Below, piece by piece: positions 1,441 through 44,100 of a stretch of DNA of 64,000 nucleotides; position 1 is the stretch's first letter; every line of letters begins with the position of its first letter. Origin of the DNA: an uncultured Ponticaulis sp. (GTDB taxonomy: Bacteria; Pseudomonadota; Alphaproteobacteria; Caulobacterales; Hyphomonadaceae); contig OY782947.1 in NCBI GenBank assembly GCA_963678615.1, forward strand, positions 2,118,688-2,182,687, in the 5' to 3' direction. Under the pieces are notes generated by a model that was not told the DNA's origin, ran no database searches, and worked only from the letters and a program-made list of their open reading frames with translations. The translations under genes and the position numbers were made by a program.

Positions 1441-1470
1441 TCGCCAGCCCAAAACACCGCACTCAAACAA

Positions 1471-1500
1471 AAACCCCCGCAACAGTTGTTGCGGGGGTTT
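1471..1500. terminator. Bidirectional intrinsic terminator
   Basis: aaacccccgcaac-agtt-gttgcgggggttt, a 13-bp stem flanked by A/T runs between convergent genes. Confidence 0.85.
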
Positions 1501-1526
1501 CTTTTACTTCAGCAGAAGTGCCGATC

Positions 1527-3563
1527 TTACATGCCGCAAGGGCCATGCAGATAAGCTTCTATTTCTTTCAGAACTTTCTCTTTGTGCTCAGGCAGCCATT
1601 TGTTGGACTGGTGCCCCATTTGCTCCAGAACAAGAAGCTTGGACTGCGGAGACGCCGCCTTGATCTTATTGTAGAAGTCAACGCTGTGGAACAACGGCAC
1701 GCGAACGTCGTAGTCACCATGGTAGAGAAGGATCGGAATGTTGACCTTGTCTGTGTTCTGCATTGGATCCATGCCCGCAACAGTGTGCCCCTGAACGGTC
1801 CGCTGGATACGGTTCTGGCCCCAGTTGTTTGAAATCTTAGCGAGGTTGGATACACCCGCACCCGCAATTGCACACGCATATGGGCTGTTCGGACGAACAG
1901 ATGCGGCAATCGCAGCGAAGCCACCATAAGAATAGCCATGAATAGCGATCTTATCTGCGTCGACATACCCCTGATCTACCAGCCATGCAGCGCCGTCATC
2001 TTTGTCGTCCTGCATTTTCTGGCCCCACTCGCCGTCACCAGCCATCCAGAGCTTACGGCCCCAGCCGTCGGAACCACGGTATTGCGGCTGCAGAATTGCG
2101 TATCCACGACTTGCAAAATAGCCAGTCCAGCCTGAGCTGTCGAAACCTGCATAGTCACGCGCCCAAGGACCACCGTGCGGATGAATGATCGCACCGCGAA
2201 CCTTGTCACCCTTTTTGTAACCCGGAGGCAGTGTCAGCAGGCCAGGAATTTTCAGTCCATCGCGCGCCGTGTAATAGATAAGCTCCGTTTTGCCGAGGGA
2301 GGAGTCATCCATCCAAGGACGAGACTTACCGATCAGAACAACTGTCTTCTTGTCCAGCAGCAGGAAGTAGGTTGGCGGAAAGTCAGAAGCACTTACCGTA
2401 AACAGAATACGACCGCGGTCGTCAGTCCAGTCATCAAGAGAAACGTGCTTGCCAGGATAAGCGGCGTCGAGACCAGACTGGATTGATGCCATTTCCGGAT
2501 CAAGCCAATAATCTTTGTAGACTTCGGCCTGGTAAGAGAAACCAAGCACACGGCCATAATCTTCGGCACGACGTGACAGGATCAGACCACCAATATTGAA
2601 CTCCGGGTGCTGCAGGAGCGGCTGGTCAGAAAATTTGTCTGTTTCAGAGTTGTAAGAATAAACAGACACTTTATCGGAAAACTTGTCCGTCAACACATAG
2701 TAAACTGGCTGACCTTCAATCTTCGACGCAATGCTGAGCTCATAGCGGTCTTTAATATCACGCGTCAGCGGATCTTCGACCACAAACTCACCAGACGCAT
2801 CCGGAAGTTTGATATACTGCTTCCAATTGCCGTCCTCGAATTCAAGACGGGTTTTTGCAAAGACTTCGCCGGTTTTACCGCTGATCTGGAAACTATCCAC
2901 GTCATCGGCTTTGTAGAGAAACTTCTCTTTGCCGTTCTTCAGATTGTGTCGATAATAACGCGTATTATAGTCTGTATCTGTACGAGACAGAATTATGTCC
3001 GTCTTATCCAGCGGAAGCAAGCTGACCAGATTTGTCTGGCCGTTAAGCTCGAAGCAACGCTCGACCATTTTGTTTGCACCGATTTCAGTCCGGCCAGATG
3101 GGAGGTCATCAATTTTCTTGATGAGCTCATTACCCATATAGACTTTCTGAATGTACTTTTTGGTGGAACCTGTGGTTTTCCCCTCACCACAGCCCATCAA
3201 AGCACCCGTATACGGCTGAACCGTGAACCAAAGAGACTTTTTCTGTTTCAACGCATTCGCGGCGAAGAATTTGGATCGACCGGAAGTTGGCGTCACTGCA
3301 GTTGGGAACAAAGGTTTGGTTGGATCAATGTCCGCATTATTCTTTGGCAGGTCCCAGTAAGCAGCCGCCCGCTGCTCACCCGGCTTGGATGGATCCGATA
3401 CTACAGCAACCAGAATGTCGCCTTCGAGCGACATAGAGACGCTGCTAACGTCCGGAAATTTGGAAAACTGATCATACGGAATCGGCTCAGCTGAAGCAGA
3501 CATAAGTCCGAGTCCGGCAAAAATGCCTGTAAACAGCACCGAGAGGGGCACACGTTTGTTCAT
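1527..3563 (-). CDS. Secreted S9 family (prolyl oligopeptidase/acylaminoacyl) peptidase
   Basis: Signal peptide (MNKRVPLSVLF...ASA), beta-propeller-like N-terminal half, HPHGGPWARD, GYSYGG nucleophile, HGDYDVRV Asp, GH His. Confidence 0.9.
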   Translation of the reverse strand: MNKRVPLSVLFTGIFAGLGLMSASAEPIPYDQFSKFPDVSSVSMSLEGDILVAVVSDPSKPGEQRAAAYWDLPKNNADIDPTKPLFPTAVTPTSGRSKFFAANALKQKKSLWFTVQPYTGALMGCGEGKTTGSTKKYIQKVYMGNELIKKIDDLPSGRTEIGANKMVERCFELNGQTNLVSLLPLDKTDIILSRTDTDYNTRYYRHNLKNGKEKFLYKADDVDSFQISGKTGEVFAKTRLEFEDGNWKQYIKLPDASGEFVVEDPLTRDIKDRYELSIASKIEGQPVYYVLTDKFSDKVSVYSYNSETDKFSDQPLLQHPEFNIGGLILSRRAEDYGRVLGFSYQAEVYKDYWLDPEMASIQSGLDAAYPGKHVSLDDWTDDRGRILFTVSASDFPPTYFLLLDKKTVVLIGKSRPWMDDSSLGKTELIYYTARDGLKIPGLLTLPPGYKKGDKVRGAIIHPHGGPWARDYAGFDSSGWTGYFASRGYAILQPQYRGSDGWGRKLWMAGDGEWGQKMQDDKDDGAAWLVDQGYVDADKIAIHGYSYGGFAAIAASVRPNSPYACAIAGAGVSNLAKISNNWGQNRIQRTVQGHTVAGMDPMQNTDKVNIPILLYHGDYDVRVPLFHSVDFYNKIKAASPQSKLLVLEQMGHQSNKWLPEHKEKVLKEIEAYLHGPCGM

Positions 3564-42290: not shown

Positions 42291-43070
42291 CTAATTCGCC
42301 GTCACCATGACGTTCTGACGTTGCAGCAGAGCTGAACCAAAAATCGTCATGAAGCTGATATCGGTCGCATCGCGACCATAAGTGATCCGCACCAGACTTT
42401 CTTCTTTCGCGAGGCGGGTCGGGTCAATCAGATGCCAACTGCCATCCAGCCAGACTTCAGCAACGGCGTGAAAGTCCGGCGGATTAATATCCGGCGCATA
42501 ACAGGACACCATGCGCGCCGGAATGCCGACAGAGCGCGCCAGCGAAATCAGAACATGCGCATAATCGCGACACACACCCTGTCTTTGCAGGAAACTGTCC
42601 GTCGCCGTGGTCGTCGCATCAGAAGCGCCCGGAACATAGTCGAAATTCTCGAAAATCCAGTCAGCCATTTGAAGGATCTGATCACCGCCGGAGACATCTC
42701 CAAACCGTTTCACCGCATAGGTTTCCAGTCGGTCTGACTCGCAATAGCGGCTGGGGAACAGATAATGGATCACATCCGGCGGTAACTCGCGACGCGGTGG
42801 CACGCAAAGGCCTGCAATGCTGAGCGGCTTTCGCTTCACATCCATAACCGCTTCATACCGGATGCGGGTGTTGCCACGTGTTTCCGTCCATTGACGACGC
42901 CCCGGCGTGCCATGCTCTTCAACGCTGCGCAACGTCGTGCTCTCACCTGTCACCGTGAGGCGATCGCGGATGAGTTTCTGATCCAGCATTGGAATGGCCT
43001 CAACCGCCAACAGAACATCTGTCGGTTCGGAAAAGAAATAGTCGAGTTCGGCTGTGATCGACACGCGCAT
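42291..43070 (-). CDS. Transglutaminase-like family protein
   Basis: YLFPSRYCESD, GVCRDYAH (Cys), DFHAVAEV (His), LIDPT (Asp). Confidence 0.92.
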   Translation of the reverse strand: MRVSITAELDYFFSEPTDVLLAVEAIPMLDQKLIRDRLTVTGESTTLRSVEEHGTPGRRQWTETRGNTRIRYEAVMDVKRKPLSIAGLCVPPRRELPPDVIHYLFPSRYCESDRLETYAVKRFGDVSGGDQILQMADWIFENFDYVPGASDATTTATDSFLQRQGVCRDYAHVLISLARSVGIPARMVSCYAPDINPPDFHAVAEVWLDGSWHLIDPTRLAKEESLVRITYGRDATDISFMTIFGSALLQRQNVMVTAN

Positions 43071-43218
43071 GGGCCAAATCCTCTGGGGTCAAAACAATTT
43101 TACGGGGGACACAAACTAGTCTCGCCCCTAACACGAAGCTCCGGGGCATTGGCAAGCCTAATTCGCGAAGTATTCAAAATAATTCTCCCTCAGAGAGTCT
43201 TCAGAGGGAGAAACTTAC

Positions 43219-43614
43219 TCAGTGATACCGGCAAGGGGTCAGTTCATTGGGTTTCGCCACCACTTGCTGCGCGTCGCGGTAGAGGATCTGCCCAGGCTGA
43301 TTGGTCCGCAGAACCCGAACCGGCAACCCCGCTTCGCGGAACAAGGCCGCCAGCGCCCACGCCCGGGAAACCGTTTGGGCATGCTGACAATCAAACCAGC
43401 AAATCCCGTGATATTGCCGGACACCCTTGGATCGCACCCAGGTGCGGTCCGGAAATGGAAGATTGGTGTTGAACCAATCCAACTCGGTATTGATCGCCTT
43501 GCGGAGATATACAGGCGCATCGTCACAAATATCCCAGGTCAGATCAGACCGGAAGAATCCAGGCGCAATGCCGCGCGCAGGCCCACGGCCCGGCGTAACA
43601 AATCGCATATACAT
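43219..43614 (-). CDS. Hypothetical protein (about 131 aa)
   Basis: Protein-like composition (LDWFN..LP.P, GICWF, RT..PG.ILYRD..QVVAKP). Start MYMRFV at 43614 is a guess. Confidence 0.65.
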   Translation of the reverse strand: MYMRFVTPGRGPARGIAPGFFRSDLTWDICDDAPVYLRKAINTELDWFNTNLPFPDRTWVRSKGVRQYHGICWFDCQHAQTVSRAWALAALFREAGLPVRVLRTNQPGQILYRDAQQVVAKPNELTPCRYH

Positions 43615-43629
43615 GAATAGCCATTTCTC

Positions 43630-43780
43630 ACCCCGCAGCTTTTGCGGGATGTCCAATTTCAAATTGTGAGGAGAACGGTCCGAACCGCTCAGATAAAACA
43701 GGCGTCGTTACGCCTTGTGAGAGACCTCACATGGCGGCGCGCTGTGGCTATATTTCTCAATGAAACGCATCGCTCTCTCC
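43630..43780 (-). promoter_or_regulatory. Attenuator-like structured leader: four hairpins with alternative pairing
   Basis: tgtgag/ctcaca, aggcgt/acgcct plus gttttat, gagcggt/accgttctc, cccgca/tgcggg; long-range tgtgagg/cctcaca. Confidence 0.55.
43708..43770 (-). CDS. Candidate 20-aa leader peptide MRFIEKYSHSAPPCEVSHKA
   Basis: SD ggagag 4 nt upstream of ATG; stop TAA lies in the terminator-like hairpin loop. Confidence 0.45.
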   Translation of the reverse strand: MRFIEKYSHSAPPCEVSHKA

Positions 43781-44100
43781 GATATTGTAGCCTGCCCGAT
43801 ATCACAGGTGGTATTTTTCAGCAAGATAAAGCCAGACGTTTTGTTCAGCCGAACCTCATTGCAGCTGATTACTTTCTCGCCTCTGGAGTCATGCTAAGCA
43901 GGTAGTGGAGTGATCGTTGGGGGATGAGATGAGTTCACGCACATTCGATATGAATTTCCGCCCGGACTATAATCCGCGAGCGCTGTTCGGCGAGTTGGCT
44001 GTAGGGCGCCAAAAACAATAATTTATTTGAACGGAGCCATTTCCCAATGCAGATGAAGTTTGTGGCGATCAGCGCTTCAATAGTCGAGCTAACCCGGCCT

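Follow-up and report, generated by a model that had tools for sequence, protein, structure and literature searches.

Background

Leader open reading frames (ORFs) that depend on proline codons are known experimentally from few enterobacterial loci, for example mgtL and mgtP. The mgtP leader has a 17-codon ORF preceded by a Shine-Dalgarno (SD) sequence, with three proline codons (PPP) at codons 10–12. Its stem-loops are alternative to one another, and the mgtC ribosome binding site (RBS) is sequestered in one of them; a U-tract terminator is absent, and the leader is responsive both to proline and to elongation factor P (EF-P) (PMC3641672, PMC6460261). Polyproline stalls modulate both Rho-dependent and intrinsic termination (PMC5021804), and among peptides that arrest the ribosome at such motifs strong arrest needs R-A/G-P-P, AAPP and AGPP serving as comparison motifs (PMC12992588). 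Here we describe a proline-codon leader upstream of an unnamed 131 amino acid (aa) gene in a 64,000 nucleotide (nt) stretch of DNA from a Ponticaulis-like member of the Hyphomonadaceae (contig OY782947.1, positions 2,118,688 to 2,182,687; "the window", whose own numbering is used below).

The minus-strand interval 43790–43615 is probably, though by no means certainly, a 5' leader in which ribosome pausing at two adjacent proline codons (Pro-Pro) controls the 131 aa gene in cis. Comparison of homologous loci indicates that selection acts on, and has conserved, the leader ORF, its Pro-Pro pair, the hairpins H3 and H4 and the structure near the RBS; the Pro-Pro pause as the signal, and the direction of the switch, are what we infer from this pattern. 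The leader appears to be a new and widespread member of the class of proline-codon leader peptides, attached to an unnamed protein family. Full-text literature searches found no description of either the leader or the protein family.

The leader ORF and the gene it precedes

The leader ORF (43770–43708; all features below are on the minus strand unless stated otherwise) comprises 20 codons and a stop (MRFIEKYSHSAPPCEVSHKA; ATG at 43770, TAA at 43710–43708). Its SD, GGAGAG, lies at 43780–43775, GGAG and the ATG being 6 nt apart, and the Pro-Pro codons CCG CCA (codons 12–13, 43737–43732), the presumed ribosome pause site, are followed directly by H1, the first of four hairpins. A first-pass annotation of the window had described the SD, the 20-codon ORF, Pro-Pro running into H1 and the four hairpins, and all of these are in the sequence.

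The downstream gene (43614–43219, ATG at 43614) has a ratio of nonsynonymous to synonymous substitution rates (dN/dS) of 0.18 in its own frame, the best of the six frames. A longer version beginning at TTG 43662 was rejected: in a 95% relative of the window a C>T change at 43644 creates an in-frame TAA, which fixes the start at 43614, and members of the protein family align from residue 1. An intrinsic terminator (43212–43175), made of a 12-nt inverted repeat (43212–43201 and 43194–43183) and then AUUAUUUUG, begins 7 nt past the stop codon, and leader, gene and terminator appear to make up a self-contained monocistronic cassette.

Word-indexed searches, and a search for loci with the single protein, gave one homolog cluster and the look of an orphan, a status that was overturned by exhaustive HMMER searches, which found 630 representatives at E≤1e-3, mostly of about 130 aa. 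The family alignment has an MY[LIM]RF N-terminus and invariant R4, F5, W47, W73, D114 and Q117.

Upstream ORFs across the protein family

Loci for a family-wide survey were chosen by the pattern of invariant protein residues only, blind to the leader; at least 117 matches were validated by the family hidden Markov model, and 82 non-redundant loci at ≤80% identity, from among the matches listed, formed the sample. An upstream ORF (uORF) was defined as an SD-preceded ATG or GTG ORF of 8–45 codons located at −250 to −30. Such uORFs occur in 54 of the 82 loci, compared with 17 in the reverse complement and 11.9±3.1 in dinucleotide shuffles, and uORFs with Pro-Pro occur in 35, compared with 2 in the reverse complement and 1.6±1.3 in the shuffles (maximum 7 in 200). 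When the SD, the start codon and the length were the sole criteria for picking uORFs, CCNCCN was present in frame in 35 of 51, and in the other frames in 6 and 7. The Pro-Pro pair lies mostly at codons 7–12 and is followed by 2–25 codons in peptides of 12–33 aa (for example MFFFMTFRPPHTEGLAPKR, MFKFIILTPPPLA, MFAMLLPPGR... and MFLISHQTQRPPARA), and the uORF stop is 48–149 nt before the main ATG. Extra members fetched by protein identity agree (peptides MYFIAHFKPPYS and MMHKRTAPPPARR, each ending at its stop codon).

A Pro-Pro leader is present in 32 of 55 alphaproteobacterial loci, as against 1 of 24 from other phyla, and 32 of the 35 Pro-Pro leaders are alphaproteobacterial. All 46 alphaproteobacterial uORFs hold at least one proline, and the Vibrio plasmid homologs are without a Pro-Pro leader. 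What emerges is an independent, phylogenetically broad proline-codon leader, found in dozens of alphaproteobacterial genera and always with the same uncharacterised family. Nearly all family leaders also have a GC hairpin just before the main start (z −9.3), ending 6–20 nt before the main ATG, and they have no well-placed canonical SD there; the region around the uORF stop is structured as well (z −5.8). The first-pass annotation had proposed translation-coupled control of an uncharacterised gene, and this is the best reading of an SD-preceded ORF that is conserved, whose Pro-Pro pair is selected, and that is linked to the gene in unrelated contexts.

Conservation of the leader in independent loci

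Two homologs whose neighbourhoods are unrelated to that of the window, P0002 (68% identity), flanked by GFA and Aldedh genes, and P0003 (58%), which follows BipA, have upstream TTCCAATACCGGAGAG-N4-ATG and a 20-codon ORF ending APPCExxHxA and a stop. In alignments of lineages at 58–68% protein identity, a block of 5' untranslated sequence at 43790–43771 ([C/T]T[A/C]CAATA[T/C]CGGAGAG...), which contains the SD and a TACAAT, is conserved. The 20-codon ORFs of loci L085 (MRLIEKYSHSAPPCEAFHKA) and L087 (MRFFIQNSQNAPPCETAHTA) differ from that of the window by synonymous changes among others. Between the window and L085, codons 1–11 have five synonymous changes and one nonsynonymous change; beyond them no synonymous site varies up to the stop, the changes from codon 12 onward being confined to codon 19 and the two codons of the H1 loop. 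This pattern suggests peptide-level selection on the 5' half of the ORF and an additional RNA constraint on its 3' half.

A metagenome scan for APPCExxHxA followed by a stop gave eight matches, none of which had the family gene following. We note that metagenome contig Ga0247840_10152379 (L213; minus strand, near 894) has a longer ORF ending ...MVSAPPCEGAHTA and a stop, with the same UGUGA...UCACA hairpin and stop context; a scan for the start motif found no family gene start within 200 nt downstream, where the contig has about 460 nt. This ORF could be related to the APPCE leader, either distantly or in a decayed form.

The closest comparison is with the 95% relative, which alone shares with the window a 925-nt block (43071–43994) that is missing from other Ponticaulis genomes. 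The 190 nt from 43598 to 43787 differ by 2 substitutions, as against about 5.4% elsewhere in the shared block (Poisson estimate, p ~0.002), and the 63 nt of the leader ORF by none. Four further metagenomic haplotypes add no variable site in 43598–43787. Of the two variable sites, 43680 is in the H3 loop and 43644 (C>T) turns a C-G pair of H4 into U-G.

RNA structure of the leader

The leader as a whole (191 nt) folds with z −2.8. H1 (UGUGAG-GUCU-CUCACA, 43731–43716; −6.3 kcal/mol, z −3.5) covers the codons for Cys-Glu-x-x-His. H2 (AGGCGU-AACG-ACGCCU, 43715–43700, with a GUUUUAU tail reaching 43693; −8.5 kcal/mol, z −2.6) contains the leader stop codon, the UAA being at the junction of stem and loop. 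H3 (GAGCGGU-UCGG-ACCGUUC, 43690–43673; −9.2 kcal/mol, z −3.1) is followed by H4, a 9-bp GC-rich hairpin (43651–43629; −14.8 kcal/mol, z −4.6) that ends 14 nt before the main ATG and whose 3' arm includes the sole SD-like purine run (GGGG) before the main gene.

The first-pass annotation had made its proposal dependent on conservation of the leader ORF and stems, and both are conserved. The RNAalifold alignment has compensatory changes between lineages in H3, and in H4 four pairs are changed on both sides; H1 has no compensatory change. The arms of H1 are conserved across three lineages and its loop is variable, with one G-C to G-U change. The homologs of H2 retain a GGCG-UAAG-CGCC hairpin, with the UAA in the loop and no U-tract (UUGCGUCA and UGACCGUCA in the two closest independent lineages), and H2 is not in the RNAalifold consensus of the three lineages.

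That consensus contains in addition a 7-bp long-range helix, present also in the minimum free energy fold of the single sequence, in which AUAGCCA of leader codons 7–9 (43751–43745) pairs with UGGCUAU at −9 to −3 of the main start (43623–43617); one of its pairs is U-A in the window and C-G in both L085 and L087. H1 can be extended by pairing CGCC of the Pro codons (43736–43733) with GGCG (43714–43711), giving −22.4 kcal/mol, and extended H1 and H2 are mutually exclusive since they compete for GGCG. Either pairing, CGCC of the Pro codons with GGCG or GGCG with the downstream CGCC, is possible in all three lineages; the segments are invariant and have no covariation.

Two other candidates in this region were set aside. 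H3 was considered as a LexA-like site, but its spacing is GTTC-N5-GTTC and not the N7 that we take to be characteristic of the alphaproteobacterial LexA box. An out-of-frame 26-codon ORF (MAIHVYAICYAGPWACARHCAWILPV and a stop; 43624–43544) starts at ATG 43624, which precedes the main start by 10 nt and has GGGG at −10 to −7; its ATG is retained in L085 and is TTG in L087, and it is probably fortuitous although it is within the initiation region.

Constraint on the Pro-Pro codons

The first Pro codon is CCU in 16 of the 35 Pro-Pro leaders, as against a 13% background, which creates CCUCC, a complement of the SD that the uORF itself uses. In 29 of 51 loci the Pro-codon stretch pairs with the SD region, in locus L223 the CCUCC is in another frame, and there are clade-specific matched variants (GGAGGCA with UGCCUCC, GGAGACG with CGUCUCC). 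A permutation test of SD and anti-SD partners was uninformative (p = 0.15), all the SDs being alike. The remaining 19 of the 35 Pro-Pro pairs, including CCG CCA of the window, are not anti-SD-like; Pro codons vary synonymously within subgroups, one of which uses five different codon pairs for L-P-P. On these comparisons the constraint on Pro-Pro appears to act at both the peptide and the RNA level, and not purely on the peptide. That the Pro codons of many members double as an anti-SD for the leader's own RBS is an unusual twist.

A model for control by the leader

As long as the RNA is free, the start region and codons 7–9, in the 5' half of the leader ORF, would pair with the main initiation region from −9 to +9, and H4 would sequester the sole SD-like purine run, leaving the main gene poorly translated. 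A ribosome slowed on Pro-Pro, for example by limiting EF-P activity or prolyl-tRNA, would cover codons 7–9 and CGCC; the long-range helix and extended H1 would then be disrupted, GGCG could refold into H2, and the output of the main gene would be altered. Translation initiation is the favoured output step, because the RBS-proximal hairpin is universal and no terminator is conserved; premature termination at the weak H2, or through Rho, would be the alternatives.

Several observations weigh against this account. The CCUCC found in 16 of 35 leaders makes part of the Pro-Pro signal an RNA-level constraint, and from codon 12 to the stop of the APPCE subtype peptide and RNA structure are inseparable. 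In a clade of Mesorhizobium, Aminobacter and Bradyrhizobium, R-L-P-S or R-P-S replaces Pro-Pro. The support for the long-range helix is one covarying pair in three lineages. Cognate duplexes between leader and initiation region are more stable than non-cognate ones (−13.7 versus −12.3±0.45 kcal/mol, p = 0.0008; locus L221 even has a perfect 10-bp anti-SD:SD helix at the main RBS), but the gain is a modest 1.4 kcal/mol, comes from a subset, and is due in part to the palindromic CAUG of the two start codons. When a ribosome footprint was placed on Pro-Pro in equilibrium folds the RBS was not systematically opened (0.40 to 0.38, p = 0.6), and Aminobacter RNA-seq contigs are flat over 8–11 kb and give no transcript ends.

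The clade that has R-L-P in place of Pro-Pro has features of its own. In L119 (Aminobacter niigataensis, 1460–1600, minus strand) and the Mesorhizobium and Bradyrhizobium loci the peptide ends ...R-L-P-S-A-K-G and a stop, or has ...RRPS...; the SD, GGAGACG, is an unusual one to which the R-L-P codons CGUCUCC are exactly complementary, and the stop is followed at once by a GC hairpin whose tail is U-rich. These loci may have a mechanistic variant of the same leader.

If the Pro-Pro pause does control the 131 aa gene, one could go further and regard leader and gene as a regulon-like module, widespread in the Alphaproteobacteria and not yet described, whose leader is a gauge of the capacity for polyproline translation (EF-P activity or prolyl-tRNA) and switches on a stress-coping 130 aa protein of novel fold. 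This extension is speculative and we would hold it only tentatively. If true, it would provide a natural sensor of EF-P or proline, in a clade for which little is understood of how EF-P is modified and regulated, and a function for an unnamed protein family of at least 630 clusters.

Alternative explanations

The leader could instead work by classical transcription attenuation, with H2 and GUUUUAU as an intrinsic terminator governed by the pairing of the H1 5' arm either with its own 3' arm or with a distal CCUCACA (43671–43665), much as the first-pass annotation had drawn it. The 7-bp alternative UGUGAGG:CCUCACA is indeed possible in the window, where it yields a three-way junction of −25.9 kcal/mol, and H2 with its U-rich tail is invariant in the window lineage. 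The GGCG segment, having one conserved CGCC partner in the Pro codons and another downstream, resembles an antiterminator/terminator pair, and a terminator-like hairpin comes just after the uORF stop in L221 and in the Aminobacter leader. The distal element, however, is not conserved in homologs, where it reads TCCCAAA or TTCCAAA, and the proposed switch is not supported. H2 fares no better as a conserved intrinsic terminator: its 6-bp stem is weak beside the rpoD terminator of the same window (−8.5 versus −18.2 kcal/mol, the latter with seven U), the two closest independent lineages have no U-tract, and the hairpin is lost from the consensus fold. Moderately U-tailed hairpins are enriched in the family leaders (at least 4 T of 8 in 16 of 35, shuffles 5.0±2.0), and a clear site, with at least 5 T of 8, is present in 6 of 35 (shuffles 1.3±1.1), but this enrichment may reflect only that there are more hairpins. 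On balance we consider attenuation unlikely.

Quite unlikely, too, is Rho-dependent polarity, in which the Pro-Pro pause would uncouple ribosome and RNA polymerase so that Rho terminates within the untranslated 90 nt, or in which the ribosome would mask a Rho site, as in mgtL and tnaC. Polyproline stalls can trigger Rho termination and mgtL works through Rho (PMC5021804), and the leader ORF is conserved although no intrinsic terminator is. Against it, the region from the leader stop to the gene is strongly structured (H2 to H4; z −5.8 and −9.3 at the uORF stop and main start of the family leaders) and would be poor for Rho loading, and no C-rich unstructured tract was identified there, Rho itself not having been tested directly.

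A third explanation makes the product of the small ORF a micro-protein acting in trans, as a partner, substrate or metal-binding peptide (Cys-x3-His) of the 131 aa protein. The invariance of the C-terminal half, APPCExxHxA, in three lineages and the constant co-occurrence of the small ORF with the gene would fit such a peptide. That invariance, however, spans all synonymous sites of the 3' half, which points to RNA structure, and across the family the peptides have in common just a hydrophobic start and Pro-Pro, being 12–33 aa long and unrelated after Pro-Pro, as is typical of cis leaders. The structured 48–149 nt spacer and the sequestered RBS are likewise leader-like, and a role in trans seems to us improbable.

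Lastly, that the element is non-coding, a small RNA (sRNA; an alternative that the first-pass annotation had raised) or a structured 5' untranslated region with a fortuitous ORF and Pro codons that are simply an anti-SD (CCUCC) motif, would suit the over-use of CCU, the pairing of the SD with the Pro-codon stretch in 29 of 51 loci and the out-of-frame CCUCC of L223, but is scarcely credible given the frame-0 excess of CCNCCN (35 versus 6 and 7), the 19 of 35 pairs that are not anti-SD-like, the synonymous substitutions, the conserved 20-codon length, the strong and well-spaced SD, the fixed linkage to the gene and the lack of an Rfam match.

Promoter and genomic neighbourhood

The first-pass annotation had taken TACAAT (43789–43784) as the −10 box of the leader. 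A box ending at 43784 would put the transcript start at about 43777, inside the SD, so that box and SD cannot both work as first described; moreover, the A at 43788 is found in the window only, and L001, L085, L087 and four metagenome runs have C there (TCCAAT). Our own candidate promoter (43824–43798) consists of TTGCTGA (43824–43818), a 12-nt spacer and GTGATATC (43805–43798), which we take to resemble the Caulobacter housekeeping consensus TTGACGS-N10-14-GCTANAWC. It would put the transcript start near 43791, which coincides with the onset of cross-lineage conservation. L085 and L087 have a comparable TTGnnn-N15/16-GATATC/GTACTC arrangement upstream of the leader, and in L087, where the end of a strong upstream terminator is only about 55 nt away from the leader ATG, a promoter must sit in the interval between them.

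On the minus strand the gene order is dnaG, rpoD, a strong rpoD terminator, about 530 nt, the leader, the 131 aa ORF, its terminator and a transglutaminase-like gene. The synteny of rpoD and the transglutaminase-like gene is kept across the Hyphomonadaceae, with a spacer of 170–1900 nt and unrelated cargo. The rpoD terminator (44296–44265) is a textbook intrinsic one, GGGCGC-UUCG-GCGCCC and seven U (−18.2 kcal/mol). Several sRNA families of Rfam matched it weakly, below threshold, and these are mere terminator matches.

When window positions 42291–43614 are compared with L001, synonymous divergence (pS) is about 0.12 in the 131 aa gene and 0.28–0.30 in the flanking transglutaminase-like and TonB-receptor genes, and the cassette block seems to go back to a younger common ancestor than the DNA around it, via recombination or transfer between the two lineages. 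Upstream breakpoints differ among near-identical strains (window 43994–44009 compared with L001 5568–5620 and metagenome contigs), being at 44009 in the window and the X5 and X6 haplotypes and at 43994 in the L001/X7 type, where a 138 aa ORF after rpoD replaces 310 nt of the window. The spacer between rpoD and the transglutaminase-like gene is a hotspot for strain- and genus-specific cargo. A short plus-strand ORF at 43930–44021, divergent from the leader, has a strong SD (GGGGGATGAG) and reads MSSRTFDMNFRPDYNPRALFGE...; its first 22 codons are kept in the relative (one D>G change), its ends differ by strain past the breakpoint, and it may represent either a gene start that has been truncated or a small divergent gene.

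The 131 aa protein

No Pfam, NCBIfam, PADLOC or PHROG family matches the 131 aa protein, and public records name the family members "hypothetical protein" throughout. An alignment-based AlphaFold2 model has a predicted local distance difference test score (pLDDT) of 86.9, whereas the single-sequence model was unusable (pLDDT 39). Foldseek searches with the former gave no significant PDB match, and the sole BFVD match was one uncharacterised phage protein. Clustering of neighbours across the family loci gave no sign of a partner gene that is conserved; antisense ORFs over the family gene itself made up the top cluster, an artefact. A response when polyproline translation falters would be the first functional handle on a family that has no name, Pfam domain or structural relative. 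For annotation, a seeming orphan belongs to a large family, and the leader ORF is unannotated in public genomes.

Comparison with known leader systems

Like the trp, his and pyrBI attenuators, the leader has regulatory codons, hairpins with alternative pairings (CGCC:GGCG:CGCC) and predicted translation. It differs from them in having no conserved terminator of GC stem and U-tract and two regulatory codons only, and the gene is not one of proline biosynthesis. With the RAPP-type arrest peptides (ApdA, ApdP, CruR and the Streptomyces RAPP/RGPP uORFs) it shares a uORF with an A-P-P-type motif, a proposed stall and control of a downstream gene. The resemblance to RAPP that the first-pass annotation had seen does not extend to the defining Arg: S or N precedes A-P-P in the window (HSAPPCE) and L087 (QNAPPCE), and other members have varied motifs, TPP, LPP, RPP or KPP, without R-A/G-P-P. 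In addition, the motif here is 7 codons from the C-terminus, in a 20 aa peptide without a signal or transmembrane segment.

The erm and cat leaders and mgtQ (PMC8092293) are similar in that the initiation region is locked with leader-ORF sequence and a ribosome on the leader would free it. Unlike erm and cat, the present leader has no known antibiotic link, its stall determinant is Pro-Pro, and in equilibrium modelling the RBS is not systematically opened.

The closest parallel is with Salmonella mgtP and mgtL. No Rfam model matches 43600–43800 even at E≤10, the Mg-sensor and mgt leader models included, and none matches the leaders of 18 family loci at the gathering threshold. There is no sequence homology, the hosts are Alphaproteobacteria and not Enterobacteria, the cargo is an unnamed protein of 130 aa in place of Mg2+ transporters or MgtC, no associated element for sensing Mg2+ or ATP is apparent here, and many of the Pro codons double as anti-SD. 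In layout, nonetheless, the systems agree: a short SD-preceded ORF (17–18 codons there, 12–33 here) lies in a long 5' leader, with Pro codons about 10 codons in (PPP at 10–12 in mgtP, PP at 12–13 here); its 3' part overlaps alternative stem-loops, the downstream RBS or start is sequestered, and there is no canonical U-tract terminator. The family described here offers a comparative data set for asking how Pro-Pro pauses are used outside the Enterobacteria, and we take its resemblance to mgtP and mgtL to be one of mechanism and not of descent.

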